Shown in pieces: positions 12,315-46,651 of a stretch of 64,000 bases of DNA; the first letter of the stretch is position 1, and each line of letters begins with the position of its first letter. A program made the translations under genes and the position numbers. Source of the DNA: a virus; the IMG/VR virus record IMGVR_UViG_3300050196_000085, positions 5,046 through 69,045 of that record; one strand, 5' to 3'. The notes under the pieces are model-generated. The model was given only the letters and a program-made list of their open reading frames with translations, did no database searches and was not told the origin of the DNA.

Positions 12315-12710
12315 ATTCCGATAAGGCTGCCACCCTATCTGTGACTTGAGGTCACTACTCTGTCAGATCAACCACCGCTGCTAAGCAGCCCCCGAATACA
12401 GTACGCTAATACTTTAACCGGAGAGGAGATCGGGCCTCTGACCGTGGAAGTTATCTGCCCCACTATCCACTGGGGTCATGACGCAAGATCCAAAGATCAC
12501 ACATCACCGACTGAGCAAAACGACATAACTCTGATCGGCGAGACATATGTGCAACAGGTGTTGCTACGATGCAAGTGGCTTTTCTCTTTTGGTTCCGAGG
12601 AGGGGGGCGTAGCCCATCCTCCGGGCACACTCCTTCATTTCCTTCCTTCATATAATTAAAGGGGATCGCCCCAGCAGGGGTGTGCTCGAAACAGGATTGG
12701 CCGTCCCGTA

Positions 12711-12739
12711 TTGTCAGACGACTATATATGACCTAAACT
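12711..12739 (+). promoter_or_regulatory. Putative sigma70-type late promoter
   Basis: TTGTCA-N17-TAAACT, ~30 nt upstream of the first late gene. N4 late genes use host sigma70 RNAP. Confidence 0.55.
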
Positions 12740-12769
12740 ACCTCTGTCACTGTGGTAAAGGAGTCACAC

Positions 12770-13522
12770 ATGAATAAGCCCGTCACCGAAGCAGAGTTGA
12801 TTGCCCGGAACCAGTTCCCCCGTGTCACTTTTGATCAGCTTCAGGCCAACATCGTTGGCAAGAAGTTCGTGCAGCATGATCTACTGACCATCTGTATTCT
12901 CACGCTGGCAAGTGGTTTCACCGTAGTCGGTAAGAGTGCTTGTGCCGTACCCGGCAACTTCAAGCTGGATGTCGGTCAGCGTCTAGCAGAGCATGATGCT
13001 ATCGGTCAGGTCTGGCCTCTTATGGGTTACGAACTCAAGAGCAAGGTGGCTTTGGCAATGAGTGCCACCGGCCCCAGCAACCCTGAGCAGAAGACTTACG
13101 TCGGAACCAAAGTGATCCATGCTCAACCAATGAGTAAGACCGAGTACAACTATTTTCGTGGTCGGGATATGCCTAAGAATGAAGACCCCAATGAAGATGG
13201 TTATCTGGTTGAATATCCCGACCAGAATTCAAACACACCACTATATCAGGGCTACGTCTCATGGTCTCCAAAGGAAGTGTTTGAAAAGTCTTATGACCTG
13301 ATGGACATTCGTGGTGAGGGTTGCATCGGTGGTCTAACGTGGCGTGATCGTCTCGTCATCGAGAAGGACGAGCTGCTGGAACGCCTTGATAAGCTGACCA
13401 CGTTCCTTGCTGGACCTCTCTTTTTAACCCTCCCAGAAGAACAGCAAGTGCTCATGAACAAACAGAAGGCTACTATGTCTTCCTACCTCACTATCCTTAA
13501 TCTCCGATTGGTTTGGGTCTGA
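12770..13522 (+). CDS. Three-module fusion: N4 gp49/Sf6 gp66-family domain + YVGTK..GYLVEY..SWSPK module + crAss001_48-like helical hairpin
   Basis: FPRVT..LTICILTLASGFTVVGKSACAVPGNFKLDVGQRLAEHDAIGQVWPLMGYELK; KTYVGTKVIHAQPM..DGYLVEYPD..YVSWSPKEVFEKSY; TWRDRLVIEKDELLERLDKL..QKATMSSYLTILNLRL. Confidence 0.75.
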   Translation: MNKPVTEAELIARNQFPRVTFDQLQANIVGKKFVQHDLLTICILTLASGFTVVGKSACAVPGNFKLDVGQRLAEHDAIGQVWPLMGYELKSKVALAMSATGPSNPEQKTYVGTKVIHAQPMSKTEYNYFRGRDMPKNEDPNEDGYLVEYPDQNSNTPLYQGYVSWSPKEVFEKSYDLMDIRGEGCIGGLTWRDRLVIEKDELLERLDKLTTFLAGPLFLTLPEEQQVLMNKQKATMSSYLTILNLRLVWV

Positions 13523-13527
13523 GCCGA

Positions 13528-13603
13528 GGACCGAAGCACGGGAGGGGGTGAGCGTAGCGGCGAAGCCAGCGTAGCGAATCCCCCGACCAAGTGCGATAGG
13601 TCC
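13528..13603. other. Cluster of GNA-triloop mini-hairpins in a branched fold
   Basis: GGACC/GGTCC, GCAC/GTGC and GGGG/CCCC stems enclose GC-GTA-GC, GGC-GAA-GCC and GC-GTA-GC. Confidence 0.6.
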
Positions 13604-13758
13604 GCAGGCGAAATCCGCATGTAAGTTGGGAGGAGTATCGGGGGACCAACCCACCCCTCCCAACCTTCTCGTGAGAGAAAACGGGGAAACCCAGAAACCC
13701 GTCCAAGAACCAGTGACCCGAAAGTCACAATGCCACAACGCTAATTATCGAGGGTCAA

Positions 13759-14451
13759 GTGAACGCCATTACACGAGCGGAAGTCGAACGAGCACTGCCC
13801 GCCAATCTCAAGCCCTCGGCCACCCAATCGCTGACGGACACTATCAACAACCTGACTTCCGATCCTATCTTGGGGGAGGAAATCCGAGGCAACTTCATCA
13901 CTTACGCCCACATCCTTTCGGAAGGAAAGTGGAGCACCGAGCAGTACTTGTCTGCCGTACAGTACGTGACGCACAAGCTCATGGGTCGCACGAACCAAGA
14001 CGCATACGCTCTCACTTTCCCACAACGCATGAACGATTTGATTGCGCGGGGAATGACATCGAAGGATATTAGTGCCTACGTCTCGGCTTACCACAAGAGT
14101 AAGTTGGTGAACGCGATCATGGAGAAGTGTCTGATCCCGGTACACGTCCTCCATGTGGACACGTATCATCAGGCTATTCGTGTGCAGGCCGACCTTATGA
14201 TGAACGCCCAGAGCGAAAAGGTTCGACAGGATGCAGCGAACTCAATCCTCACGCACCTCGCTACTCCCATCAAGCAAGCACCAACTGTGGCCATCCAGAT
14301 CAATAACAATCAGGAACTGGATGCTATGAAGAAGATGATGGCCAACTTGGCCGAAGTCCAACTTGGTGCTATCGACTCTGGAATGACCGCAAAGGATCTG
14401 GCCAGTCAGGTTCTGATTGAACACGAGACCACCACTGATGGCACTGATTAA
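13759..14451 (+). CDS. N4 gp69-like protein (putative small terminase)
   Basis: ALPANLKPSATQSLTDTIN..AVQYVTHKLMG..SEKVRQDAANSILTHL; lies immediately upstream of terL. Confidence 0.75.
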   Translation: MNAITRAEVERALPANLKPSATQSLTDTINNLTSDPILGEEIRGNFITYAHILSEGKWSTEQYLSAVQYVTHKLMGRTNQDAYALTFPQRMNDLIARGMTSKDISAYVSAYHKSKLVNAIMEKCLIPVHVLHVDTYHQAIRVQADLMMNAQSEKVRQDAANSILTHLATPIKQAPTVAIQINNNQELDAMKKMMANLAEVQLGAIDSGMTAKDLASQVLIEHETTTDGTD

Positions 14452-16030
14452 GCAAGAGTTGGATGAATGGCTGGATCAAGTGGACTACACCCACTTGAAC
14501 AGTCTGAACTTTAAGCCTTCGGGCTTTGCTCTCCAGTTCATGAACTTTATCAAAATGGTCAATGGATCTGAGGGGGAGTCTCATAAGACACCCCCCGTTC
14601 ATCTTGCCATGCTCGACAAAATTGCTGAACCTACCTCTTATATAGCCAACCTTTGTTTTCGCGGTGCGGCCAAGACCACTTTGTTTGCGGAATACTTCTT
14701 TCCGTTCGTTGCAATGATGGGTGAGTTGCCCAATTTTGGTGATGTGTCTGGGGCCATCTATGTTTCTGACTCGATGGACAACGGCGTCAAAAGCCTGCGT
14801 CGGAACATGGAGTTCCGATACAACAACTCGCCATTCCTTCAGAGGTGGCTGCCTAAGGCTACCTTTACGGACGCCTATATCGAGTTTGAGAACATTGCTG
14901 GTCACAAATTCGGCCTGAAGATGTTTGGTGCAAAGACCGGCCTTCGCGGTACAAAGATCTTCGGTAAGCGACCTACTCTCTGTGTGCTCGATGACCTTGT
15001 GAGCGATGACGACTCGAAGTCGCAGGCATCCATGATCGCTATCAAGGATACGGTCTACAAAGGTGTAAACCACGCCCTCGATCCAACAAAGCGGAAGGTC
15101 ATCTTCAACGGCACACCCTTCAATAAAGACGACATTCTCATTGAGGCTGTCGAGTCTGGTGCTTGGGACGTGAACGTCTGGCCTGTATGTGAACGGTTCC
15201 CATGCGAGCGTGATGAGTTCTGTGGTGCATGGGAGAATCGCTTCTCTTTTGATTACGTCTCAGCTCAGTATGATATGGCAGTGAAAACCGGCAAACTAGC
15301 CGCATTCATGCAAGAGCTGATGCTTCGCATCACGTCGGAAGAAGAGCGTCTGGTTCAGGATGATGAGATCAAGTGGTATAACCGCATGAATCTCCTTGTG
15401 AATCGAGGCTCGTTTAACTTCTATATCACCACAGACTTTGCTACATCCTCTCGCCAGACAGCGGACTACTCTGTTATTAGTGTCTGGGCATACAATGCTC
15501 AGGGGGACTGGTTCTGGGTAGATGGCGTTGCTGCACGCCAGACAATGGACAAGACGGTAGATGATCTCTTTCGACTGGTTCAGTTCTACAAGCCCCAACG
15601 AGTAGGCATCGAGATCACCGGCCAACAAGGTGGCTTTATTCCTTGGCTCCAGAATGAGATGCTCAATCGGAACATCTGGTTCAATTTTGCCAGTTCTAAC
15701 CCAAAATCTAACACGCCGGGCATTCGTCCGACTGTGGACAAGCTCAGTCGTTTCAACGTAGTCGTGCCGTGGTTCAAGATGGGAAAAGTTTATTGGCCCA
15801 AAGAAATGGAACGCACCCCCATCATGGGTATGTTCATCGGGCAAATTCGTCTTGCCACCGTGTCCGGTATCAAAGGCAAGGATGACGCCCTCGATACCAT
15901 TTCCATGCTTCAGTATATGAATCCTTGGAAGCCGTCAGACTCTGTACCCGCGACCCCGGATGAGGTAGAGATCTGGGAGGAGGACGCAAGGGCTGATGAG
16001 CTATCCAGCCTGTCGTCTTATATTGTGTGA
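14438..16030 (+). CDS. terL: Terminase large subunit
   Basis: LCFRGAAKTT (Walker A), LCVLDDL (Walker B), FNGTPF, ITTDFA..DYS, KDDALDTISML nuclease motifs. Confidence 0.95.
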   Translation: MALIKQELDEWLDQVDYTHLNSLNFKPSGFALQFMNFIKMVNGSEGESHKTPPVHLAMLDKIAEPTSYIANLCFRGAAKTTLFAEYFFPFVAMMGELPNFGDVSGAIYVSDSMDNGVKSLRRNMEFRYNNSPFLQRWLPKATFTDAYIEFENIAGHKFGLKMFGAKTGLRGTKIFGKRPTLCVLDDLVSDDDSKSQASMIAIKDTVYKGVNHALDPTKRKVIFNGTPFNKDDILIEAVESGAWDVNVWPVCERFPCERDEFCGAWENRFSFDYVSAQYDMAVKTGKLAAFMQELMLRITSEEERLVQDDEIKWYNRMNLLVNRGSFNFYITTDFATSSRQTADYSVISVWAYNAQGDWFWVDGVAARQTMDKTVDDLFRLVQFYKPQRVGIEITGQQGGFIPWLQNEMLNRNIWFNFASSNPKSNTPGIRPTVDKLSRFNVVVPWFKMGKVYWPKEMERTPIMGMFIGQIRLATVSGIKGKDDALDTISMLQYMNPWKPSDSVPATPDEVEIWEEDARADELSSLSSYIV

Positions 16031-34001: not shown

Positions 34002-37000
34002 ATGGCTTCTCGCTACCAGCAGCTTTTGAACCAGTACGCCGGAGCAATGCCCACCCCATTGCCCGTGCAGAAAGCGGAAGAGGTTGAGCAGGCTGCTGAC
34101 TCCAAACGACAAATGCTGGAGGGCCTGACGCCACAAGACGGCTATGATGCTGCCACTATCCGTCACGATCCTAACATGGCTGGCCTCAGCTCGGCCTCGG
34201 AAATCGAACGAGATATGGCTACGGCCAGTCCGCTTGACCTGTATCTGAAGTACGGTGATGCAGCTCGTGGGATGATTGCCAACCGCAGTACCGGTAGCAT
34301 TCAGCGTCAGGCCGACATCACTAATACTGACTCCAATCGAATTGGAGACATGATTACGTCTATCCTCACTGGCACGACTAATCTCGTTGGTGGTGTGGCT
34401 GGTCTAGGTGCAGGTGCCCTATCTCCGGTGATCGGGGCCAAGCCCGGTCACGCTATTAATGAAGTCACTGGCGATGTTACCGGTTTTATCAAGGGGTTCC
34501 AGTCAGAAGCCGTGAACGCCTCGGATCGGGTCTATGACGCGGCCCGTCGTATGGCCGAACGTGACAACCGCGAGACGGCAAATGGAATTGCAAACGATCT
34601 TCGTCCTTATGTCGGCGACACCGTTGCCGAAGCTTCGGCCGGTGTGGCTGAAGGTGTGGCCGATACCTACTCGGCTCTGAAGAACTCGTGGGAGAACCCC
34701 ACGATGGCGCTGAATACTACAGGTGAGGCTATTGGTTCGCTACTGCCGATTGGCAAGTTGACCAAGGTTCTTGGTAAAGTAGGTGGTGCTGTAGTTCGCC
34801 GTGTTGGTATGGCAGGTGCCGTCGAAGAGATCGCCGCTGCTAAGACAGCCGGTCGTTATCTAACCGTGGGTGATCGCATCGCTCTGTCAGCCACTGAACA
34901 TGCTCCGGTTATGGCTGCTATTGGTCTGTCTGAAGCAGGCGGTTCATTCCAAGGTACGGAGCAGGAAGCCTACCGTCAACTGAAAGAGCAGGGTGTCGAT
35001 GAAGGGGATGCTCTACGTATTGCCAACAACGCTGGTCTGTCGGCTGCATGGAAGCAGGGTCTGGCTGCAATGGCCAGTGGTGCTCTGACTGCGAAGTTCG
35101 AGGCCAACCCGTTTGCTAAAATGTCTCCCCGCGAGTTCGCCAAGATCTTGCTCAAGGAGCCTATCGAAGAAGGTTTCCAAGGTGCATCGGGTCAGCTTGC
35201 CCAGAACCTTGCGGTGCAGGACTACGTGAACGCAGATCAACGTCTCATGGAAGGCGTAGGCGAGCAAGTGGGTCTAGGTATTGTGGGTGCTCTTGGTTCC
35301 ACTGGAGCTGTGCAGACACCGGGTCTTGCTCTTCGTGGTGCAATTGAGACGGCCAAGCTTCCTTTCCGTGCTGCCGGTGCTGTGCTTACGTATCAGGGCA
35401 ACCGTGTTGCTGCTCGGAACCAGAAGGTTCAGGATGATGCTCTTCGGGGTATCTTTGGTGAAGCTGATGCTGTTTTGCCGGATGCTCAATCTGAAGCTGA
35501 ACAGGCCATTGAAGCTGCCAAAGCCAATGCTACGGTTAAAGCTGCTGCTCGTGAATGGGTGAATGGTATGGTGGAAAGGTTCCAACAGACCAAGAGTGTG
35601 CAGGCTGCTGCCGACATCGTGAATAAGGTCGGTGGTGCCACCAAGGATAAGCTGGATGCTGCCCTTGAAGTCATCAACGGTATCCGTAATTCTGAGACCA
35701 CTCAGGATGATGAGACTCCGGCACCTTTGGCCAATACGACCATGCAGAGCATCAAGGATGCTGTGGCTAATGTGGCACAGTCTGAAGGTGTCCAGCAGGC
35801 CATGGACAATGCCAAAACCATGTTCGGTCGTGCTGCTGGTGCTATCAACGCTGGCGTTCGTTCGGCGATTGCTGGTCAACAAGCTCGTAAGGCATCTGCC
35901 CCTGAAGACATGCAGGTTGCTGCAAATCGTCTGGTAGGTCTGGCCGAAACCAATCCCGAGAAGTTGGACCCGGATGCTGCAAACCAGATCCTTTACCACG
36001 CTGGTCAGGGGACTATTCAGCTCACGCCGGTTCAGACGAACGCTCTTCGTATGGGTGTTGCTGCTGCGCGGACTGCCAAGGATGCCACCAATGTGGGCAG
36101 CAAGTATGGCCTAACCGGTGCTCAGGCGGTGGCCGAGAACGTACTCACGAACGGTCGAAAGAAGGGCGAGCGCCTTTCGCTTCAAGAGCACCTTAAGACC
36201 ATTCGAGCTGCGCTTGACATGGGTGATCGTGAAGCTGCTACCCGTGCGTTCCGAGAACTCAGTGGCTTTGCTCAGCACTTGTCGAACCAAGTCGTTGCGA
36301 TCAACGACGCTTTGGTTGGTGGGAACACGAACGACAAAAACCCAGTCACTTTCAATGCTCATGTCGGCAATGGTGTTTTTAAGCCCCTCGGAAGTCGGTA
36401 CGTTCAACCAACCTCTGAGAAGAGCGTCAAGATTGCCCAAGAGATGGCCACTCAGGCTGCTGTTGTCGGAGCGGCGGTGAACAACCTGAGTGATGCTTTC
36501 CCCGAGTTCAGCATCCCTCACATCGAAATTTCTTCGCTTGATCCATTGCTCGATGGTGATGCGACTACCGTCGCCAAAGAGTATGCGAGTGGGAAACGTA
36601 AAGCTTCGGTCAATGAGGCAGACAGTATTACTGTCGAGGCTGGGCAGGTCGATCAAGGTAAAACACCCTATGAGATGCAGGTGGTGGAAGAACCTAATGT
36701 AGATCAGACCAATAGTGAACAGGCTGTGTTTGAACCAACCCAAAAGGTTGAGCAGTCGCAGACAGAAGTTGTTGTTTCTGAAGCTGAAAAGGTTTCCGCC
36801 GTTGAAGAAAAAACTTTGATAACTGAAGCCACTCTTGTTGATCAACCGGGGGAACAGGGAATCGAATCCTCGGTAACTGACAAGCCTGTATCAGAGCAGG
36901 TTCCTGCTGAGGAAGTTCAGAAAGATCAGCGTGTTGGTGGTGACAGCAACCGGGTCACTCGTGCGTTTACTGAACCAAATAAACCTAAGACCCGTATTGC

Positions 37001-40000
37001 TGAATCGGTGTCACCCCTTCAAGATGTGAAAGATGCTTTGTCGTCTGAAACTGCTCTTCGTGAAAAGCTTGGTGAGATTGAGTTAAACCGCCGTTTCACT
37101 CAGGAAATTGCCGACCAGTATCGTGAACTTCTCGCTGCCGGTGAGCGCATCATTCAGGTGATGACGGCTCGAATGCAGAAAGCTGTCAAGAGCAAACTTG
37201 GTCGTTTGTCGTTTGAGGAACTGCTTCCTAAACTGGAAGCCGGTGCTCTCAATGCTGTGATCCAAGATGCCAATGGCAATTACATCTACGATCCAAAAAT
37301 TGTAGAATCCGCTGTGCTTGCTGGTCTTCAGTGGGTTCTGAAGATGAACAGCCATGGTGTGACCATGACTGATGAAGCTGTGCGTGAAGCCTTCGGTCTT
37401 ACAAGCGATGCTTATATTCCAGATGGTTTGGCAGACAGGCTTTCGGCTGGTCTCTCGACTGCCGAGGTATCTCGTTCTCTGGCTCAAGCCATTGGCCAGT
37501 TCCTCGGTCTGAAAGAACGCACTGACATTCCCGTGAATGAGGCACAGGCAGTCAAAGAAGGTCTTGCTAAGGAAGTTCTGACAGCATTGATCAATCAAGG
37601 TCTTGTTGATGAGTTCAAGGTGGACATCTCGGAAATCTCCACCCGTGACAATGTGTCTGATGTTGTTCGTTTCCGTCCGGGGGTTATGCGTGAAGCAGAT
37701 GCCATTGATGAAAGTGGTAATGTCAGGCGGGGTAATGTTGTTCGCGATGAGCAAGGTAACCGGATCAGGGCTATTGCCCCTGACGCTGCGATCCGTGGTT
37801 TCCCCGATGCTATTGAAAAAGCTGTACTAACTGACACACAGCCTGAAAGTTTTGTAGGTGAGATGCCTACTGAAGTTGCAAAAACGCAACTTCGGTCAGA
37901 CACACCTGTGACTAAAGAGCAACAGGAAGTGATCAAGGCTGAGCAAGCCATTGAACACAATGTCAATCTACCTTTCATCAATCTGCTGATTAGTGCTGGT
38001 CAGGAGTCTGAAGAACTGGTGTTGCGTCTGTTTGCTGGACAAATCGATGACACTATGAACGAGAACCACAAGCGTTCTGTTGAAGGTCGTCGTCTGATGT
38101 TCCAGTCTGCTTTCCGCTCGATCCAGAACCTCATGGCTGAGGTCACGAACGTGGCAAGCAAGAGTGGTCGTGATCTCGGCACTGTGCCGGTCTACTTCCG
38201 TTATGCTTATACGGTCGTAAACCGTCTTCAGATGTTGGGTAAGAACAATCCACAGTTCAGCAAGCTGATGCGTGAATTCATTCTACCTACGTGGGATGTA
38301 TTGGATCTGACTGATTCACAGAACCGCTTGAAATTCTCTCTTGGTCTGGCTCAGGCTCTTGGTGTGAAAGTTCACAAGGTTCAGCCTAAAGTGATGTTGG
38401 TCGAACTGAAGGATGCTCTTGCCAAGTTCCCTAAAACTCTGGAAATGTTGGGTAACAGCAGCTTCAAGCTGACTGAAGCTGCTGTCGATACCATGATTGA
38501 AGAGGGCGTCGAAAGCCCTGTAATGCTTCATGCCTTGATGGAGTACGCACGTCTTCAGAAGCCTGAGACCGACAAGAGCAAGTTCAAGACTGCTCTCTAC
38601 TTTGAAGCAGATGGTGTGACCAACGGTGTGGTCAACGCAATGTCATTGTTCTCGTCGGGCAGCTTCACACCAAACTGGGTGTCGAACATTCAGCGTGGTG
38701 GTCTGTGGATCGGTGAGCAAGCACTGTCTCTGGCTCATATTCGTCAGACTGATACTGATGCTCAAGACGATCTGTACGGAAAAGCAGCAGAGAACACTGC
38801 TTACAATGTGCGTAAGCTCATTCAGAGGCATGAGGGCAAAGACACAGGCGAGGTTATGCTCTCTGTGCTCCATGTACTAACAACCCTTCTTCCAAAAGGG
38901 ATCCAATATGATGAGAAGAGTAACAAGCTGAAGCTTGATCGTGCTGCTACCAAGAACCCATTGACCATCACGGTCTACGGCTCTGGTGTTATGGGCATTG
39001 CAGGTAACATTCTCGATGAAGCTCTCAACGCCATGTATGAGCGTTTCTCACAAGCTGCTGCTCGCAAGAAAGCTGATCCGTCAATCTCCGATGGTCAGGC
39101 ATTCTTTGGGGGTGATAGGGCTACGGCTGATAAAAAGTGGAATCGTTTCACCAAGGCTATGCGTGTCCTCGGGGCTAACAAACTCGTGAAAGAAGAAAAT
39201 AATCTCTACGTTGCAGAGACCGGCATTGATAGGATTCTTTCTGGTTCCAACTTCACGGATTACACCGTGGATAAGGTGGCAAAGCGTGCCCTTCAGGAAA
39301 GCTTCCTTCACGCTTTTGTGAACCCAATGGTTCGCGGGATCACCAAGACTGTTGGTAGTGATCTCATCGGCACTATGGATTTGATTAAGAGGCAGACTCA
39401 AACGTGGTCGCTGGTTGGTCAGTTCATGTACCAGAATGCCTATGAGAAAGCACTCAAGGCAAAGCGTGCAGCCAATCCTGATATGGATAGCTACGAGCTT
39501 CTGTCGAAGGATGAAGAAGACTTTATCCGTAAGCAGATCGATCAGAACCTACCCCAGTTTAGCACCGGGACACAGAACTATACGTTCGGTCAGCAACAGC
39601 GTCTGAACTTTCCGTTCATGACTTCAAAGAATGGCAAGCCCCTTGGGCTTGAATTCAGTCGTGCTTTGGATGATCGTTTTGAAACTCCAGCTTATGGCTA
39701 CATGCCGGGTGATGCTGGTGTATCAGGTCAACCTAACATGACCATTGGTAATGGTGATGGTCAGGCTGTGCAGAACATCATTAAAAACCCTGAAACGCCT
39801 AAAAAGCGTCTTCAGATCTTCGATGGTATTCACTCTACGATTGCCGAACTGGACAAGATGGGTCTCGCTGCAAACAAGGGTGTCTTCGACTCTTGGCAGC
39901 GTAATCCAATGGCTGATCTGGCAAAGGCATTTCGTAACTTTGCTGATCAGGTTGATCTGTCCTCACTGACTGAGGATCAGCTCAAGGCTCTTGCCAAGAG

Positions 40001-43000
40001 CGTTTTTGGTGGGTGGACTGCGGTTCCTGCTGCCAGTGATTTGGAATTGACCATCAAGACTATGGCCATTTCCGGTCAAGAAGTGGCAAACAACATTGCT
40101 GCACGTCAGCGTGTGCTTGCCAGTGTTCAGCATTCTGTGGACCAGATGGCAGGTGCGGCAGCACCTTATAGCAATCCGGGCTTGATCCTGTCTGGTTCGG
40201 CGGCAGCCAAAGCCGCTCAACTCAATAAATTGCTTGCCGTTGAAAAGGCCAAGAACGAGCCTGTTAGAGCGTTCGAAGCACCTACCCAGTCTGTGACACC
40301 AGATTCGACTGAAACGTCTGTAAAAGCCTCTGAGAGCAATTCTGAGACTAAAGCTCAAAAGCCTTCTTTTACCCAGATGAACATGTTCTCTGCTTTGGGC
40401 GCTCCGGTCACTTTGTTTGGTCGGGCATTAGAAAAAGTGATTGCAAAGGTCTCGGACAACCTGCTTACGCGGGCATTGCTTCGTGATGTAGTTCGATCAG
40501 ATAAGCTGAAAGATTACACCGTTTATACTGGAAGCCGTGAAGCATTAATCAATCGTGCTGCTGACATGGGTATCATTATCCCGGCTGATCGTCAGGATAC
40601 CTTTAATGGTATGATTCATCCTGAAAGCCGTCAGATGTTTGTGCTCAATGGTGATGCTGAAACGATGCTTCACGAGAGCATTCATGCTGTCACTTATGAG
40701 ACAGTTGCTGCTCATTACCGTGGTGAAAATGTCGGACCTGAAGCCAAGGCTGCTATTACTCGCCTTGAAGGCTTGATGGGGGAGTTTCGTAAGATTGGTA
40801 ATATCAACATTGGTTTTGGTTCAATTGGTAATCCCGAAGACATTATGAATAAAGGGACCAAGGAAGAGTATGTCTCAGCCTTTGGGCAAGACATCTTTGA
40901 CAGAATAGAAGCTGGTGAGATTACTGAAGAAATCATAAATAAGGTTCAAAAGGGTATAGACCTACTGGAAAGCAAACAGCTTAAAGAGCGATTTAACTCT
41001 TACGGAATTAGCGATAAAGTCTATTTCCGTATTGTGGATAGCCTCAGTAAGTATGCTGTTGCTCTCGGAGGTTCTACTATCGACACTGTAAATGGTGCAT
41101 ACCTGTATCCCAACAAGGATACAAAGGGCTTTGGGGCGAAGAAGCCTTTGCTTCTAATTGCCCGTGATATGATGGAAGACCCTGAAAAAGTTATTGATCA
41201 TGAAACTATCCATGCTTTCCGCCAGCTTGGTATGTTTACGGTGGAAGAGTGGAACACTCTTGTAACTGAGGCGCTTAGCAATAAGTCCTTGAAGAAGTCT
41301 GTTGATACTCGTTACATTGGATTGTCTAAAACAGCTCGTAATGAAGAAGCTGTTGCAGATCTGTTTGCTATGTGGCGTCAGAACAACAGTGTTGTTTCTG
41401 AGAAAAACAACTCGATCTTTAAGAAGCTTTTGCTGATGATTGGGTCTGTGTTTTCGGCCTTTAAGAATCAACAGAATCTTTCTGGTTCAGTTGAAGAGAT
41501 TTTTAAAAAGATTGTTAATGGTTCACTCGCAAAGCGTGGTCCGCAGCAGTCTGCTGTTTCTGGTCTTTTGGGTAGTGCAAGCATTGCTCAAAGTAGTTTT
41601 GATGTAGCTTATCAGAATTCTTTGGCTGAAATGAATCGCCACTTTATGAATGACGATAAAGCCGCTGAGCTGAATGAATTCATGGCTTGGTCGCTTTCGA
41701 ATGTCGCTCTTCGTGATAAGCTTCAGACTATCAAAATTACTGACAAGTCTCTCAGCATTCCCCGCAAGGTGGTTCAGACCATTAAGGCACTTCTATGGGG
41801 TGGTAAGCGTTCGGCTGCTGTGAGGGATGATCTTTTTACGAACATCCGGTTCAATACCGCTATCATCATGCGGTCTAACCCGACCCCCTCAGAGATGACC
41901 AGCAGTGCTACTCTGTATCATGATCCCAGCTTTGGTAATGATCAGAGACTGATCAAGCTTCTGGAATCGGTAAAGGGTAAAATTGCTGATTACATCACTG
42001 AAGATGTGATCAATCGTGTGAACCTTGCACGTCGTGCAGGTCTGGAACCAGCAAAGGAAACTGATGCAGCCAAAGGCTTCGAGAAGGATACTCGGGGTAA
42101 GGTAGACCGTGGTCGTATCCAAGGTGCATCGGCTGCTATTGCCTTTGATCGTGTTGGCTTTGACTTCACGATGCAGGAGCGTATGGCCTTCGTCATGATG
42201 GTGTCTGTCATGGCAACTGCTGCTGATCTGGATGCAAATGCTACCAGCCGTATGCAGGAAATCTACACGCATGTTGTTTCGAACCTTTCGGTCGATGATT
42301 TCTTGCGTGACCCGACCACCAACAACCCTGAAGACAATGAGCAGGCAAACAAGAAGTTCAATTTGCTGACTGGTGGCTTTGCCAACCGAACAGACAACCG
42401 TGATCGTTCATTGATTATGCCTGCTTTTGTGGCTCTTGCTGCAACCAACCCCGAGTTTCGTGCAATCATCAACAAGATGCCTATGCCAAAGGGTAAGTAT
42501 GTTGGTTGGAACTCGGTGGACAACATCCTCGATAACATCGGGGATATGGGCATGGATGCTGTGAGCCGTGTGGTTTCTGGTGAAGGTGCCCTGACCAAGA
42601 ATGTTCAGGACTCTATCGATAACCTTGTGTCTCAGATGCTAGAAACCAATGCTGAAGCAGAGATGTTCATCGAGAAGTACACCAAGCCTGTTGGCTCTGC
42701 CATTGATCAGGTCAACGAAAAGCTGGTGTCTCTTTTCAACTGGCTCGGTGAAAAAGCTGAAGCCAATCTTGAGAAAGCAAAGACCGATCCCGACGCCAAG
42801 ATCAAACTCGCTCTCGCTAGCAGCTTGAAGACTTTGACTGGTATTTTGCATGAACCTACTGGGCAGGGAACTGCCATGAAGGTCATGTCCACTGCTAACC
42901 AGTCTGAGGGACTGTGGAAGCCTTTCTATGATCTACTGAAGGATCTCGTTGGACGTACTGTTGAGAATGCTCGGGTTTATGATCTGATCAAGTTGGCACG

Positions 43001-45308
43001 CTATCATGTGTCCAGCTTGCGTCAGCAATTTGTGGAAGAACTGCCCAAGATCATCAACAGCAAGTTCAGCCGTGATCTTACTGAAGTTGAACAAACTGCG
43101 ATGTTCAAGGGACTTGCCCAGACCGACCTCGCAAGTTTGTTGGGGGACAATACCATTCAGGAAATTCTGAAGTGGGTGTTTAATCCTGCTGCTCGTGACA
43201 TTAAGATCAAAGAACTCTCGGACACGATCAGTGACCTGTCACCAGAAAATGCTGCTTTGATCCTGAGCAAGTCTGAGCAGCTTGCCGAGTACATGATCAA
43301 TAAAAAGTCTGGTTCGAGTTTGCTGCGTAATGCTGATGCCATTGCTCATCTTCTGAATGAGGGTAAGCCTTCGCCTGTGACCAGCAAGGAAATGGTCAAA
43401 GCCATTGATCATTTGGTTTCGTTGAAGGCTCTGTCCAAAATCAGCAGCCGTGATAGCATTGCTCTTTCTTCACTGGTTCTCAGTGAAAAAGAGGGGCTGA
43501 ACTTTGTTCTGAACTCTCTCCGTGGACAGCGTGAGACTGAACAGTCCAAGGCTGACGGCAATGCCCGGTTCAATCACTACAAGGGTCATATGACTTCTAT
43601 GCCGGGTGATAGTGTCAGCCTTATTGTGGCCCATGATAATGAGACAGCCAAGCTCCTCGAAAAGAGCTACATTCGTCTGGGGCCATTGGTTGGTTCGCCT
43701 CGTGATCCTTCTGCGAAGAATCGCTCGTACTTCTATGCTCCCGTTTCTGGACGTGCTGCATATTCGCAGGGCATCGCACAGAATGTTCAGCGGACTGTAT
43801 CCGGTGTTGACCACGCTACCGGGTTCACTCTTGGAACTACTGGTGGGATTATCACAGATCCTAAGTTTGTGGCGAAAATTCGTCAGAACAAGGCTGTCGA
43901 AAAGGTTGGATCTGCTCTGCTTCCCGTGTTTGACGCAAAGGGCAAGCTATATGCATACGAACGTCAGGTAGCACCAGCTATGCTGGATCGTTTGCAAGGT
44001 GATACAAACCTTGCAAAGATGATGGGTGCTCGTGGTGGTCGTCAGGCTGAAGAAGCTGCTGCCATGACGATCAACAGACTGCTGATTGATAACCTGCGCG
44101 ATATGTGGGACCGTGATCGTCGTGCTGGTAAACAGAACGAGTATCAAGATCTCTTCAAGTCCACTGATCCAGTTGTGCAGGACTCTGTGAGCATCCTCTC
44201 GAATGAGATGAAGATGTATATCACTGCACGTTTCCCTGAAGGCTTCATGGTTCGTAGCGACATGGTGGATGACGCTATCGGCTATCGTGCCGCATCGATT
44301 GGTGACGTGTGGACTGGTACTTCACGTTGGTCTGAGCAGACTCAGGAAATGGTCAAGAAGGCTATGATGGGTATGTTCGGTAACAAGGCTTATGCCTATG
44401 CGGTCAAAGCTGAAAAGTTCTGGCAGAATGCCATTGTGCAAGACATTCGCACTATGATCATCATCCGGTCGGTCATCGTGCCGATGGCAAATGCTGCCAG
44501 CAATGTTTACCAGTTGATTGGTCGTGGCGTGCCTATGACTTCAATCTTCCGTGGCATTCCAAAGAAGACTGCTGAAATTGAAAGCTGGCACAAGACTCGT
44601 ATCCGTCAGATGGAAGCAGAGGCAGAGCTTTTGGCTACTACTGATTTGGTTCAGCGCCGTAAGCTGGAAGTAGAGATCAAAGCTATCTCTGACAGTCATA
44701 AGCGGCTGACCATTTGGCCTTTGCTGGAACGTGGTGAGTTCTCCTCGATCTCGGATGCTGGATCCAGAGAGGATGTACTTCTCACACAAGGTAAGTTGTC
44801 AGATTTTATTGAAGCTCAGATTGACAAGCTTCCCTCTGCTGTTCGAACTGCCGGTAAGTATGCCATTATTTCGAAGGATACAGCTTTGTTCCGTGCCCTT
44901 CAGAAGACGGTGGATTATGGTGACTTTGTGGCAAAGGCCATCCTTTACGATGACCTCACGAAGCGTCAGCATAAAACCAAGGAAGAAGCTCTTGCTCGCA
45001 TCACTGAAGAGTTCGTGAACTACGACAGGCTGCCGGGACGTGACCGCCAGTATCTGGAGTCGGTTGGTCTTCTCTGGTTCTGGAACTTCAAGGTTCGTTC
45101 GTCTAAGGTTGCTTTGAGTATGCTCAGAAACAATCCTGTTCATGCGATTATTGCAGCCAACATGCCACTACCGATCAATGGTATTGGTCTGCCACTGGAA
45201 GATAACCTTTGGTCCAGCCTGTTTGATGGCAGACTGTTCAACAGCTTTGGTCTTCACACGGGCTTCAGAGCACCGGGTCTTTTGCCTTTGGGTGGTCTGC
45301 TAAACTAA
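34002..45308 (+). CDS. Virion-encapsidated RNA polymerase (N4 gp50-like), 3768 aa
   Basis: YFEADGVTNG (motif A), RAATKNPLTITVYG (motif B), IFDGI (motif C); giant size; no Cys seen on reading. Confidence 0.97.
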   Translation: MASRYQQLLNQYAGAMPTPLPVQKAEEVEQAADSKRQMLEGLTPQDGYDAATIRHDPNMAGLSSASEIERDMATASPLDLYLKYGDAARGMIANRSTGSIQRQADITNTDSNRIGDMITSILTGTTNLVGGVAGLGAGALSPVIGAKPGHAINEVTGDVTGFIKGFQSEAVNASDRVYDAARRMAERDNRETANGIANDLRPYVGDTVAEASAGVAEGVADTYSALKNSWENPTMALNTTGEAIGSLLPIGKLTKVLGKVGGAVVRRVGMAGAVEEIAAAKTAGRYLTVGDRIALSATEHAPVMAAIGLSEAGGSFQGTEQEAYRQLKEQGVDEGDALRIANNAGLSAAWKQGLAAMASGALTAKFEANPFAKMSPREFAKILLKEPIEEGFQGASGQLAQNLAVQDYVNADQRLMEGVGEQVGLGIVGALGSTGAVQTPGLALRGAIETAKLPFRAAGAVLTYQGNRVAARNQKVQDDALRGIFGEADAVLPDAQSEAEQAIEAAKANATVKAAAREWVNGMVERFQQTKSVQAAADIVNKVGGATKDKLDAALEVINGIRNSETTQDDETPAPLANTTMQSIKDAVANVAQSEGVQQAMDNAKTMFGRAAGAINAGVRSAIAGQQARKASAPEDMQVAANRLVGLAETNPEKLDPDAANQILYHAGQGTIQLTPVQTNALRMGVAAARTAKDATNVGSKYGLTGAQAVAENVLTNGRKKGERLSLQEHLKTIRAALDMGDREAATRAFRELSGFAQHLSNQVVAINDALVGGNTNDKNPVTFNAHVGNGVFKPLGSRYVQPTSEKSVKIAQEMATQAAVVGAAVNNLSDAFPEFSIPHIEISSLDPLLDGDATTVAKEYASGKRKASVNEADSITVEAGQVDQGKTPYEMQVVEEPNVDQTNSEQAVFEPTQKVEQSQTEVVVSEAEKVSAVEEKTLITEATLVDQPGEQGIESSVTDKPVSEQVPAEEVQKDQRVGGDSNRVTRAFTEPNKPKTRIAESVSPLQDVKDALSSETALREKLGEIELNRRFTQEIADQYRELLAAGERIIQVMTARMQKAVKSKLGRLSFEELLPKLEAGALNAVIQDANGNYIYDPKIVESAVLAGLQWVLKMNSHGVTMTDEAVREAFGLTSDAYIPDGLADRLSAGLSTAEVSRSLAQAIGQFLGLKERTDIPVNEAQAVKEGLAKEVLTALINQGLVDEFKVDISEISTRDNVSDVVRFRPGVMREADAIDESGNVRRGNVVRDEQGNRIRAIAPDAAIRGFPDAIEKAVLTDTQPESFVGEMPTEVAKTQLRSDTPVTKEQQEVIKAEQAIEHNVNLPFINLLISAGQESEELVLRLFAGQIDDTMNENHKRSVEGRRLMFQSAFRSIQNLMAEVTNVASKSGRDLGTVPVYFRYAYTVVNRLQMLGKNNPQFSKLMREFILPTWDVLDLTDSQNRLKFSLGLAQALGVKVHKVQPKVMLVELKDALAKFPKTLEMLGNSSFKLTEAAVDTMIEEGVESPVMLHALMEYARLQKPETDKSKFKTALYFEADGVTNGVVNAMSLFSSGSFTPNWVSNIQRGGLWIGEQALSLAHIRQTDTDAQDDLYGKAAENTAYNVRKLIQRHEGKDTGEVMLSVLHVLTTLLPKGIQYDEKSNKLKLDRAATKNPLTITVYGSGVMGIAGNILDEALNAMYERFSQAAARKKADPSISDGQAFFGGDRATADKKWNRFTKAMRVLGANKLVKEENNLYVAETGIDRILSGSNFTDYTVDKVAKRALQESFLHAFVNPMVRGITKTVGSDLIGTMDLIKRQTQTWSLVGQFMYQNAYEKALKAKRAANPDMDSYELLSKDEEDFIRKQIDQNLPQFSTGTQNYTFGQQQRLNFPFMTSKNGKPLGLEFSRALDDRFETPAYGYMPGDAGVSGQPNMTIGNGDGQAVQNIIKNPETPKKRLQIFDGIHSTIAELDKMGLAANKGVFDSWQRNPMADLAKAFRNFADQVDLSSLTEDQLKALAKSVFGGWTAVPAASDLELTIKTMAISGQEVANNIAARQRVLASVQHSVDQMAGAAAPYSNPGLILSGSAAAKAAQLNKLLAVEKAKNEPVRAFEAPTQSVTPDSTETSVKASESNSETKAQKPSFTQMNMFSALGAPVTLFGRALEKVIAKVSDNLLTRALLRDVVRSDKLKDYTVYTGSREALINRAADMGIIIPADRQDTFNGMIHPESRQMFVLNGDAETMLHESIHAVTYETVAAHYRGENVGPEAKAAITRLEGLMGEFRKIGNINIGFGSIGNPEDIMNKGTKEEYVSAFGQDIFDRIEAGEITEEIINKVQKGIDLLESKQLKERFNSYGISDKVYFRIVDSLSKYAVALGGSTIDTVNGAYLYPNKDTKGFGAKKPLLLIARDMMEDPEKVIDHETIHAFRQLGMFTVEEWNTLVTEALSNKSLKKSVDTRYIGLSKTARNEEAVADLFAMWRQNNSVVSEKNNSIFKKLLLMIGSVFSAFKNQQNLSGSVEEIFKKIVNGSLAKRGPQQSAVSGLLGSASIAQSSFDVAYQNSLAEMNRHFMNDDKAAELNEFMAWSLSNVALRDKLQTIKITDKSLSIPRKVVQTIKALLWGGKRSAAVRDDLFTNIRFNTAIIMRSNPTPSEMTSSATLYHDPSFGNDQRLIKLLESVKGKIADYITEDVINRVNLARRAGLEPAKETDAAKGFEKDTRGKVDRGRIQGASAAIAFDRVGFDFTMQERMAFVMMVSVMATAADLDANATSRMQEIYTHVVSNLSVDDFLRDPTTNNPEDNEQANKKFNLLTGGFANRTDNRDRSLIMPAFVALAATNPEFRAIINKMPMPKGKYVGWNSVDNILDNIGDMGMDAVSRVVSGEGALTKNVQDSIDNLVSQMLETNAEAEMFIEKYTKPVGSAIDQVNEKLVSLFNWLGEKAEANLEKAKTDPDAKIKLALASSLKTLTGILHEPTGQGTAMKVMSTANQSEGLWKPFYDLLKDLVGRTVENARVYDLIKLARYHVSSLRQQFVEELPKIINSKFSRDLTEVEQTAMFKGLAQTDLASLLGDNTIQEILKWVFNPAARDIKIKELSDTISDLSPENAALILSKSEQLAEYMINKKSGSSLLRNADAIAHLLNEGKPSPVTSKEMVKAIDHLVSLKALSKISSRDSIALSSLVLSEKEGLNFVLNSLRGQRETEQSKADGNARFNHYKGHMTSMPGDSVSLIVAHDNETAKLLEKSYIRLGPLVGSPRDPSAKNRSYFYAPVSGRAAYSQGIAQNVQRTVSGVDHATGFTLGTTGGIITDPKFVAKIRQNKAVEKVGSALLPVFDAKGKLYAYERQVAPAMLDRLQGDTNLAKMMGARGGRQAEEAAAMTINRLLIDNLRDMWDRDRRAGKQNEYQDLFKSTDPVVQDSVSILSNEMKMYITARFPEGFMVRSDMVDDAIGYRAASIGDVWTGTSRWSEQTQEMVKKAMMGMFGNKAYAYAVKAEKFWQNAIVQDIRTMIIIRSVIVPMANAASNVYQLIGRGVPMTSIFRGIPKKTAEIESWHKTRIRQMEAEAELLATTDLVQRRKLEVEIKAISDSHKRLTIWPLLERGEFSSISDAGSREDVLLTQGKLSDFIEAQIDKLPSAVRTAGKYAIISKDTALFRALQKTVDYGDFVAKAILYDDLTKRQHKTKEEALARITEEFVNYDRLPGRDRQYLESVGLLWFWNFKVRSSKVALSMLRNNPVHAIIAANMPLPINGIGLPLEDNLWSSLFDGRLFNSFGLHTGFRAPGLLPLGGLLN

Positions 45309-45521: not shown

Positions 45522-46079
45522 TCAGTTCTTAGGCTTGTCCAGCTTTGCGAACAGCGATTGTCGCGGAGCCACTTCCGCCTCGGTGGAAGCTTCAAGCTGA
45601 GCTTCTACCTCAACGGCTTCAGCCGTCGTGGTGGTTGCTTCGTCCTGCCCGGCTTCGACTGTCTCTTCCTGAACAGCGTTCAGGTCGATAGCGTCGGCAG
45701 CACGGGCAGCTTCTTCCTCAGCCGACATTTCAGCGGCAGATTCAACTGGGGGTGTGGTGGTCGGAGTGGCCTTGGCTTCAGCAGCCTTGGCGGCGATGTT
45801 CAAGGGCTTGGTGCCCGAGGTCTTCACCTTTACCGGAGTCGGCTTGACAACTTCTTCCTTGGGAGCCGAAGCAACCGCCGTGGCGACAGCAGCAGTCGCT
45901 TCAGCGGGGTTCAGGTCGATGGCAGCCGTGAAGCCGCTGGGACCACGAGTGGCCGACAGTGTGATGCCGATCTTGGTGTTTGGGTCAAGACCCGGAACCA
46001 GCGAACGGACATGGATGTCAATGGCCTTTTCGATCTCTTCCTGATCGAGCGTCATGTTGAACGCCATATTGTATTTCAC
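45522..46079 (-). CDS. Hypothetical protein with an Ala/Glu-rich tail, conserved position in N4-like phages
   Basis: LDQEEIEKAI..IGITLSATRGPSGFTAAID. Confidence 0.7.
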   Translation of the reverse strand: MKYNMAFNMTLDQEEIEKAIDIHVRSLVPGLDPNTKIGITLSATRGPSGFTAAIDLNPAEATAAVATAVASAPKEEVVKPTPVKVKTSGTKPLNIAAKAAEAKATPTTTPPVESAAEMSAEEEAARAADAIDLNAVQEETVEAGQDEATTTTAEAVEVEAQLEASTEAEVAPRQSLFAKLDKPKN

Positions 46080-46651
46080 CTTTCAAATAGCCGCATGAGG
46101 TTCTGGAAGGTTGGGGTCAAAACCCCAGCGTGAATTGCAGCAAGAGCATCTGCGGCGTGTTCAGCCTTGCTGTGAATATCACCCTTCGTAAAGCCCTTAC
46201 CGCTTTGCTCATACAGCGGCCAGTTCGCTTTGGGGTAAAGATTTACCCCCCAATCGATCATCTGCTGCTTAGTGGCGTTCTTGTTGCCGGTCGCTGCCTT
46301 CTTCACCTCAAAGGCAGTGACTTCGATCAGAGGGATACCCTCTGCTCGGACGGCACCAAGGATACCCATGCAAACGCCGTAGCTTGCCATCGCCCGTGCC
46401 GATTGAGATCCCACGGGGCACTCAACGAACACGACTTTGGATTTGCGGGCGACTGCCAGAGCTTTGACGGCAAGTTGCTCACTGACAAATAGATCAGTTG
46501 AGTTCTGACGGACCTGCTTGCCCTTGAGCTTCTCTGGTTCCACGACTGACAGGTTGAGACCATCGAGATAGCCTCCTGAAAGGTCGAGTGTGGCTTCAAC
46601 AATACCCCAATGTGTGAGACTGGGATCGAAGCCTGCGACATTAATGATCAT
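46076..46651 (-). CDS. RuvC-like Holliday junction resolvase
   Basis: VAGFDPSLTHWG, VFVECPVGSQSARA, AEHAADALAAIHAG. Confidence 0.85.
   Translation of the reverse strand: MIINVAGFDPSLTHWGIVEATLDLSGGYLDGLNLSVVEPEKLKGKQVRQNSTDLFVSEQLAVKALAVARKSKVVFVECPVGSQSARAMASYGVCMGILGAVRAEGIPLIEVTAFEVKKAATGNKNATKQQMIDWGVNLYPKANWPLYEQSGKGFTKGDIHSKAEHAADALAAIHAGVLTPTFQNLMRLFER

Follow-up and report, generated by a model that had tools for sequence, protein, structure and literature searches.

An N4-like phage gene probably encodes a two-signal immune sponge with a widespread, RyR Tad-related middle module

Results

A probable sponge gene at the head of the block leading into the terminase genes

We analysed 64,000 nt (hereafter the window) of a 73,268-bp virus record (IMG/VR IMGVR_UViG_3300050196_000085) that is rated 99% complete. 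The source virus is an N4-like phage; the window carries a virion RNA polymerase gene (34002–45308; 3,768 aa), a large terminase gene (14417–16030) and, on the minus strand at 46–51 kb, genes for a primase, a Sak4-like protein, an SSB and a RuvC-like protein. The gene under study, here called the sponge gene (P0001), occupies positions 12770–13522 of the plus strand, stop codon counted in (ATG at 12770, TGA at 13520–13522), and encodes a 250-aa fusion of an Acb4 domain, a middle module and a Sequestin hairpin. A ribosome-binding site, AAGGAG, is located on the same strand at 12758–12763, 6 nt 5′ of the ATG, and the sequence GGTAAAGGAG at this site is kept in four of five related phages.

The sponge gene stands at the head of a rightward block in which it is followed by a 230-aa gene, the large terminase gene and the structural genes, and it is opposed by genes homologous to gp1 and gp2, which come first among the early genes of N4. 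This layout is common to four relatives and Rhizobium phage RHph_X3_15. A megablast search of the sponge locus against GenBank phages gave no match, and relatives were found only at the protein level. The sequence-only reading had called the gene the first late gene, a designation drawn from position only; each of the four relatives has one or two small ORFs, variable in kind, ahead of the gene, and we do not retain the designation.

In the two closest relatives, an Acb2/Tad1-hairpin gene (PF24729; 61–62 aa) is located immediately 5′ of the fusion gene (L005:2820–3008 and L006:2776–2961, the L006 match being weak). Two further relatives have unrelated small ORFs at this site and the window has none; the Acb2/Tad1-hairpin gene was found neither in the window (tblastn) nor in the entire 73-kb genome. 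Because the small ORFs are variable and two of them carry the Acb2/Tad1 hairpin, one with a weak match, the site resembles a small accessory island and looks like a small variable anti-defence islet.

The sponge genes of phages N4, Ab09 and CB1 are located elsewhere, between the primase and virion RNA polymerase genes. In the window, this N4-type hotspot contains nothing but the Sak4-like, SSB and RuvC-like genes plus a 185-aa ORF of no assigned function (45522–46079, minus strand). The RuvC-like gene (46076–46651, minus strand; phrog_159, E 4.5e-39) lies between the SSB and virion RNA polymerase genes, and its product is the counterpart of Ab09 Bes1, a reported broad evader of signalling defences.

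Promoter candidates and conserved non-coding DNA

A promoter of its own, of the sigma70 type, had been proposed for the sponge gene. The site TTGTCA-N17-TAAACT (12711–12739, plus strand) is weak and matches at 9 of 12 positions, and the three sigma70-like sites of the region are not above chance (1.7 ± 1.5 expected). Its −35 element is kept in the relatives and its −10 element is not, as three of four relatives have TAAAAG there, and we therefore do not uphold the proposal. A perfect TATAAT at 12651–12656 of the plus strand, inside a conserved non-coding block and with no recognisable −35 element, may be considered an alternative promoter candidate.

The approximately 350 nt of non-coding DNA 5′ of the sponge gene (12420–12769) are 75% identical to those of a relative and contain as invariant blocks TTTCCTTCCT, the TATAAT at 12651–12656, AACAGGAT and CCGTCCCGTATTGT. 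A GC-GTA-GC mini-hairpin at about 12606–12620 differs in sequence among the relatives while its pairing is maintained. Promoters reading in either direction could be located in this region, or it could contain the genome-end junction of an N4-type genome.

On the 3′ side, the sponge gene and its neighbour are separated by a strongly structured spacer of 236 nt (13523–13758, plus strand). It folds far more stably than shuffled sequence (z −4.2), has a mean identity of 72% across four relatives and may serve to set the sponge gene apart from the terminase genes. The two sides of its one long stem both differ from phage to phage (GGGAGGAGTA/TACTCCTCCC, GGGGAGAGTA/CTCTCCCC and GGAAGGGG/CCCCTTCC). 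Two additional GC-GNA-GC mini-hairpins are found in the spacer of the window and are missing from the relatives. A search of Rfam gave no match for either conserved intergenic region.

Three modules in one protein, two of them from established sponge families

An AlphaFold2 model of the protein, computed with 59 full-length relatives (mean pLDDT 92.7), consists of three compact units joined by short linkers: helices, three strands and a long helix (aa 7–98), a beta-beta-alpha-beta-beta-alpha unit (aa 108–174) and a helical hairpin (aa 191–248). Together with the Pfam matches of the outer parts (PF13876 and PF21825) and the PHROG matches of the middle part, the model bears out the earlier division of the 250-aa ORF into three modules. 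No NCBIfam family matched the protein, which is present in identical form on six contigs.

Module 1 (12788–13063, plus strand; aa 7–98) has three beta strands flanked by helices and belongs to the Acb4 family. Pfam PF13876 (Phage_gp49_66) matches at aa 20–92 with an E-value of 1.4e-18 and 67.6 bits (cut-off 27). The profile of the 59 relatives matches the SPO1 Acb4 chain (PDB 9e4w) at E 2.2e-8, and Foldseek superimposes module 1 on the same chain with a probability of 1.00 (TMt 0.66–0.76, rmsd 1.3–1.6 Å over 67–70 columns). Chang et al. assigned SPO1 Acb4, the founding member, to PF13876, so that the link between the gp49/66 family and Acb4, to which the sequence-only reading had pointed, is a published one; in their work, all eight purified Acb4 homologues, divergent ones included, bound 3′3′-cGAMP. 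The fold and family membership of module 1 are secure.

SPO1 Acb4, a homotetramer that binds cyclic dinucleotides, is a single-domain protein, unlike the three-module fusion, and is only approximately 21% identical to module 1. Its ligand is contacted by K36, F48, E49, V56, Y57, F62, N63, I66, T70 and K81. Three of these ten positions have conserved or conservatively replaced counterparts in module 1 (F50, F64 and V68 for F48, F62 and I66), and the other seven are occupied by L38, T51, C58, A59, K65, L72 and P83; K36, E49, Y57, N63, T70 and K81 are thus not conserved here. Because few of the SPO1 contacts are conserved, the ligand preference of module 1 is not readable from its sequence.

Module 3 (13337–13510, plus strand; aa 190–247) is a Sequestin hairpin. 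Its match to PF21825 (crAss001_48) spans aa 190–247 (E 3.1e-16, 59.5 bits, cut-off 24.8), and the model places two helices at residues 191–214 and 223–248 with a pLDDT of 93–98, which agrees with the crAss001_48-like hairpin that had been recognised from the sequence. R194, E198, Q232 and R246 are invariant in all 59 relatives and align with R8, E12, Q47 and R61 of SequestinA, the residues that contact 3′cADPR when Sequestin sequesters it (Tal et al., 10.1101/2025.07.12.664507). Their spacing (+4, +39, +53 in SequestinA) is kept to within one residue relative to SequestinA and exactly relative to SequestinB, and the motifs DRLxxE and QxxxMxxYLTILxxR are common to module 3 and SequestinA. An antiparallel homodimer with 3′cADPR has been shown for SequestinA and for the Sequestin domain of Ab09.

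In the survey of Tal et al. (10.1101/2025.07.12.664507), PF21825 was the commonest fusion family of Acb4 (91 cases) and of Tad2 (60 cases), and 10 of 13 members inhibited type I Thoeris. Module 3, for which a role as a new inhibitor had been suggested, thus belongs to an established 3′cADPR sponge family and not to a new one. The argument behind that suggestion, namely that related anti-defence modules are brought together in fusions, also led Tal et al. to discover Sequestin, and because of this match the reading of the protein as a multi-signal sponge is well supported.

The middle module shares homology with the RyR Tad N-terminal domain

Module 2 (13085–13297, plus strand; aa 106–176; beta-beta-alpha-beta-beta-alpha) is marked by the motifs YVGTK (110–114), GYLVEY (144–149) and SWSPK (165–169). 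No Pfam family matches it; by itself it matches several PHROGs (phrog_872, phrog_9467). Homology links it to the N-terminal domain of RyR Tad (gp68 of Pectobacterium phage vB_PatP_CB1, NC_048653), with 37% identity to residues 3–63 of CB1 gp68 in BLASTP (E 6e-7) and 29.3 bits in a profile search (E 3.4e-5, database size set to 1e6); Foldseek also matched it to the RyR protein of Yersinia phage TG1 (E 1.9e-5, TMq 0.76). The published account of this domain of RyR Tad goes no further than a fold with no assigned function: its crystal shows a strand-swapped dimer, made by inserting beta1 into the sheet of the partner, and alone the domain is inactive against type I Thoeris.

The homodimer of module 2 was predicted with a score of 0.60 (best control, 0.04). 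Of 30 solved homodimers, 20 attain this mark, as does one of 23 solved single chains; the runs agreed in at least 82% of contacts with a pLDDT of at least 80. In the model, beta1 (residues 5–8) pairs with beta2′ (12–16) and residue 10 touches residue 10′. The predicted dimer fits an exchange of beta1 and is compatible with the description of the RyR Tad crystal.

Over long range, module 2 is better conserved than either of its neighbours (55% identity, compared with 42% for Acb4 and 34% for Sequestin). It is acidic, with a mean net charge of −4.4 and a pI of 4.9, and contains a conserved long acidic loop, (D/E)EN-x-x-(D/E)EG. The invariant residues K11, Y46, Y59, S61 and Y72 (module numbering) are located at the predicted dimer interface, and a second conserved patch (Y23, R27, W29, P32 and E35, module numbering) lies outside it. 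In the copy studied here, codon 132 (13163–13165, plus strand) is CGG (Arg), whereas 58 of 59 full-length relatives have Trp (TGG) at this position of the conserved RGW motif. Because the identical protein is found on six contigs, R132 is unlikely to be a sequencing error, and because W132 is near-invariant, module 2 may be altered in this copy.

Searches for other known folds gave no hit to module 2 among solved structures with Foldseek at E ≤ 0.001, nothing below E 0.29 for its sequence profile against the PDB, and only matches in the noise range with VIA-align against 48,161 chains (best Z 4.8; CarD/Tudor-like and DUF1653 small barrels). SPO1 Tad2, listed at the top by Foldseek, was rejected as a structural match (E 0.9–2, TM 0.35–0.39), as was the idea that module 2 is a degenerate Tad2 (PF11195) repeat (hhalign probability 0.1%, no Pfam match); this phage carries no PF11195 gene. 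An identity with Lockin, which is not found in sequenced phage genomes, or with TadIV-1, which is confined to Straboviridae, is unlikely from the distribution of module 2 in 138 GenBank phages.

Module 2 is a mobile unit fused to several sponge families

A search of 1.84 billion representative proteins with module 2 gave 1,676 matches at E ≤ 0.001 and 604 matches at E ≤ 1e-10; module 2 therefore occurs in no fewer than 1,676 clusters when proteins are grouped at 50% identity. Among the best 143 of the 1,676, the only Pfam partners were Sequestin (42), Tad2-like (38), Acb4 (31), the Acb2/Tad1 hairpin (3) and YceI (1); RyR Tad is an additional fusion partner. The architectures of these best 143 representatives were module 2 with an unknown partner (36), module 2-Tad2 (33), Acb4-module 2-Sequestin (18), module 2-Sequestin (17) and module 2 alone (12), the remainder having other domain orders. 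The stand-alone proteins are 76–100 aa long. A structural search of the ESM Atlas agrees with this picture and includes a cluster of 114 members in which a 78-aa module 2 stands alone. Module 2 is thus a mobile unit of approximately 70 aa.

Phages with module 2 infect many hosts: it is present in 138 GenBank phage records, and its host range covers Proteobacteria, Clostridium (Firmicutes) and, with Bacteroides and crAss-like phages, Bacteroidota. In many proteins, N4 gp49 included, it is N-terminal to a PF11195 Tad2-like domain (52–63% identity), which confirms the statement of the sequence-only reading that module 2 is often fused to the Tad2 family. In 33 of 80 IMG/VR loci, the module 2 gene has a second sponge gene as its same-strand neighbour. 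Arrays that are split over two genes break on either side of module 2, giving Acb4-module 2 followed by Tad2 or Acb4 followed by module 2-Tad2. For two stand-alone copies in IMG/VR loci, a sample too small to support a conclusion, no sponge gene was found within 3 kb. In the GenBank phages PQ850616, PQ310662, PP889499 and PQ850609, the middle-module genes are annotated as 'anti-CRISPR protein', a label that probably derives from the name of the Tad2/AcrIIA7 family and not from a test.

Comparison with known sponge fusions

The closest characterized protein combining both outer modules is gp59 of the N4-like Pseudomonas phage vB_PaeP_C2-10_Ab09 (Fedorova et al., bioRxiv 10.64898/2026.06.04.730250), an Acb4-Sequestin fusion. 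It is a tetramer that binds 1′′–3′ gcADPR (tightly), 3′3′-cGAMP and 2′3′-cAA. Its effects on defence systems are a block of type I Thoeris, a partial block of type II-A CBASS and the triggering of Panoptes (10.64898/2026.06.04.730250). Its N-terminal Acb4 is 43% identical over 56 aa to the Acb4 core of the protein described here, and its C-terminal Sequestin hairpin is 30% identical with the same R/E/Q/R residues. In contrast to our protein, gp59 has only 147 aa, in which Acb4 (aa 4–79) and Sequestin (aa 86–143) are joined directly, without a middle module, and its gene is located in the primase-virion RNA polymerase hotspot and not near the terminase genes. With gp59 published, the multi-signal reading stands and, for modules 1 and 3, is not new. 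Tal et al. (10.1101/2025.07.12.664507) named the YH6 fusion as another Acb4-PF21825 fusion.

Phage N4 has the same order of Acb4 followed by module 2 in gp48 (Acb4) and the overlapping gp49 (middle module and Tad2-like domain). With the database size set to 1e6, the middle-module profile matches gp49 at E 1.5e-30, and tblastn shows approximately 53% identity. The N4 array differs in being split over two genes and in ending with Tad2 (PF11195), where the protein studied here has Sequestin. In RyR Tad, the homologous N-terminal segment (aa 3–63) has as its sponge partner a RyR Repeat12-like helical domain (PF02026), and the module as found in CB1 is a divergent version that has no RGW motif and only some of the long loop. 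The Acb4-Tad2 fusion of Pasteurella phage Pm86, which cancels type I Thoeris and type I CBASS, likewise joins two sponge families in one protein, the second being Tad2 and not Sequestin; its inter-domain stretch was drawn as an unmodelled linker (Tal et al., 10.1101/2025.07.12.664507).

Discussion

From the behaviour of tested homologues we infer the ligand binding, the oligomeric state and the anti-defence effect of the fusion, and we consider it highly probable that the gene encodes a two-signal immune sponge. The Acb4 module would form a tetramer that sequesters CBASS cyclic dinucleotides (3′3′-cGAMP and relatives, probably c-di-AMP isomers). The Sequestin hairpins would pair as antiparallel dimers, and these would sequester the type I Thoeris signal 3′cADPR (1′′–3′ gcADPR) through R194, E198, Q232 and R246. 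The middle module would form a strand-exchanged homodimer and act mainly as an architectural hub that links protomers between the two sponge layers, without being a nucleotide sponge itself. The explanation as a whole, dual sponge and hub together, appears likely to us; the hub role taken separately is its weaker part, with about even chances of being correct. It is favoured by the dimers seen in the crystal and in the prediction, by the negative activity test of the RyR Tad domain, by the position in the middle of the array and by the acidity of the module. With this single protein the phage very probably weakens two defences, CBASS and type I Thoeris, and for that reason it should be vulnerable to Panoptes-like sponge sensing.

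A purely architectural module 2 is rendered less convincing by several observations. It occurs in stand-alone forms of 76–100 aa, Acb4 and Sequestin oligomerise without it, it has the highest long-range conservation of the three modules, and it places invariant K, Y, S and Y residues at the predicted interface, as is found in sponge pockets. Module 2 may instead be a third sponge or otherwise bind a small immune signal (such as His-ADPR, N7-cADPR, cUMP/cCMP or a cyclic trinucleotide), so that the protein would neutralise three signals. All of its named fusion partners but one (YceI) are sponge families, its stand-alone forms have the typical size of sponges, and its superior conservation and the predicted homodimer with invariant K11, Y46, Y59, S61 and Y72 at the interface would suit such a function. 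We nevertheless regard a third sponge as unlikely, given that the N-terminal domain of RyR Tad alone was inactive against type I Thoeris, that most sponge pockets are positive whereas module 2 is acidic (pI 4.9), and that this copy carries W132R. The earlier proposal of module 2 as a new inhibitor is thus possible and not the best-supported reading.

Less probable still is a module 2 that binds a protein and not a nucleotide. Such a binder could act as an acidic decoy or clamp on a host immune protein (a TIR protein or a cyclase sensor) in the manner of Tad3–Tad8, or as a shield that hides the sponges from sponge-sensing systems such as Panoptes. An acidic surface with the long conserved loop (D/E)EN-x-x-(D/E)EG, and a second conserved patch off the predicted dimer interface, would fit this role; direct protein inhibitors of ThsB and ThsA exist, and Panoptes is triggered by sponges. 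On the other hand, no partner is known, the sequence indicates no particular target, and the very wide host range would call for a very conserved one. A non-immune job of the whole protein, for example in DNA packaging, is suggested by its position upstream of the 230-aa gene and the large terminase gene and is very improbable: both flanking modules come from experimentally established sponge families with key residues intact, N4, Ab09 and CB1 carry these modules elsewhere, between primase and virion RNA polymerase, and a conserved structured spacer lies between the sponge gene and the packaging genes.

Annotating modules 1 and 3 is routine and of an already published kind; the value of the locus lies in the middle module, a small domain that is better conserved than the sponges that accompany it. 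Taking new sponges and direct binders of a conserved immune protein together, the idea that module 2 is an unrecognised autonomous anti-immune domain is tentative and, on balance, somewhat doubtful. If it were correct, module 2 would be among the most widespread such domains, fused to sponge modules of five families, and the 36 of 143 representatives with unknown partners would be a ready list of further new inhibitors. If module 2 is only the dimerising hub that we prefer, it would explain how sponge layers are stacked in one particle.

The fusion relatives vary in length as well. Some (P0019, P0020, P0022 and P0044; 340–361 aa) have approximately 80 extra aa before the Acb4 domain, and others (P0057, P0058, P0063 and P0069; 356–393 aa) are extended by a long insert that separates module 2 from Sequestin; these stretches are further uncharacterised modules on the same scaffold.
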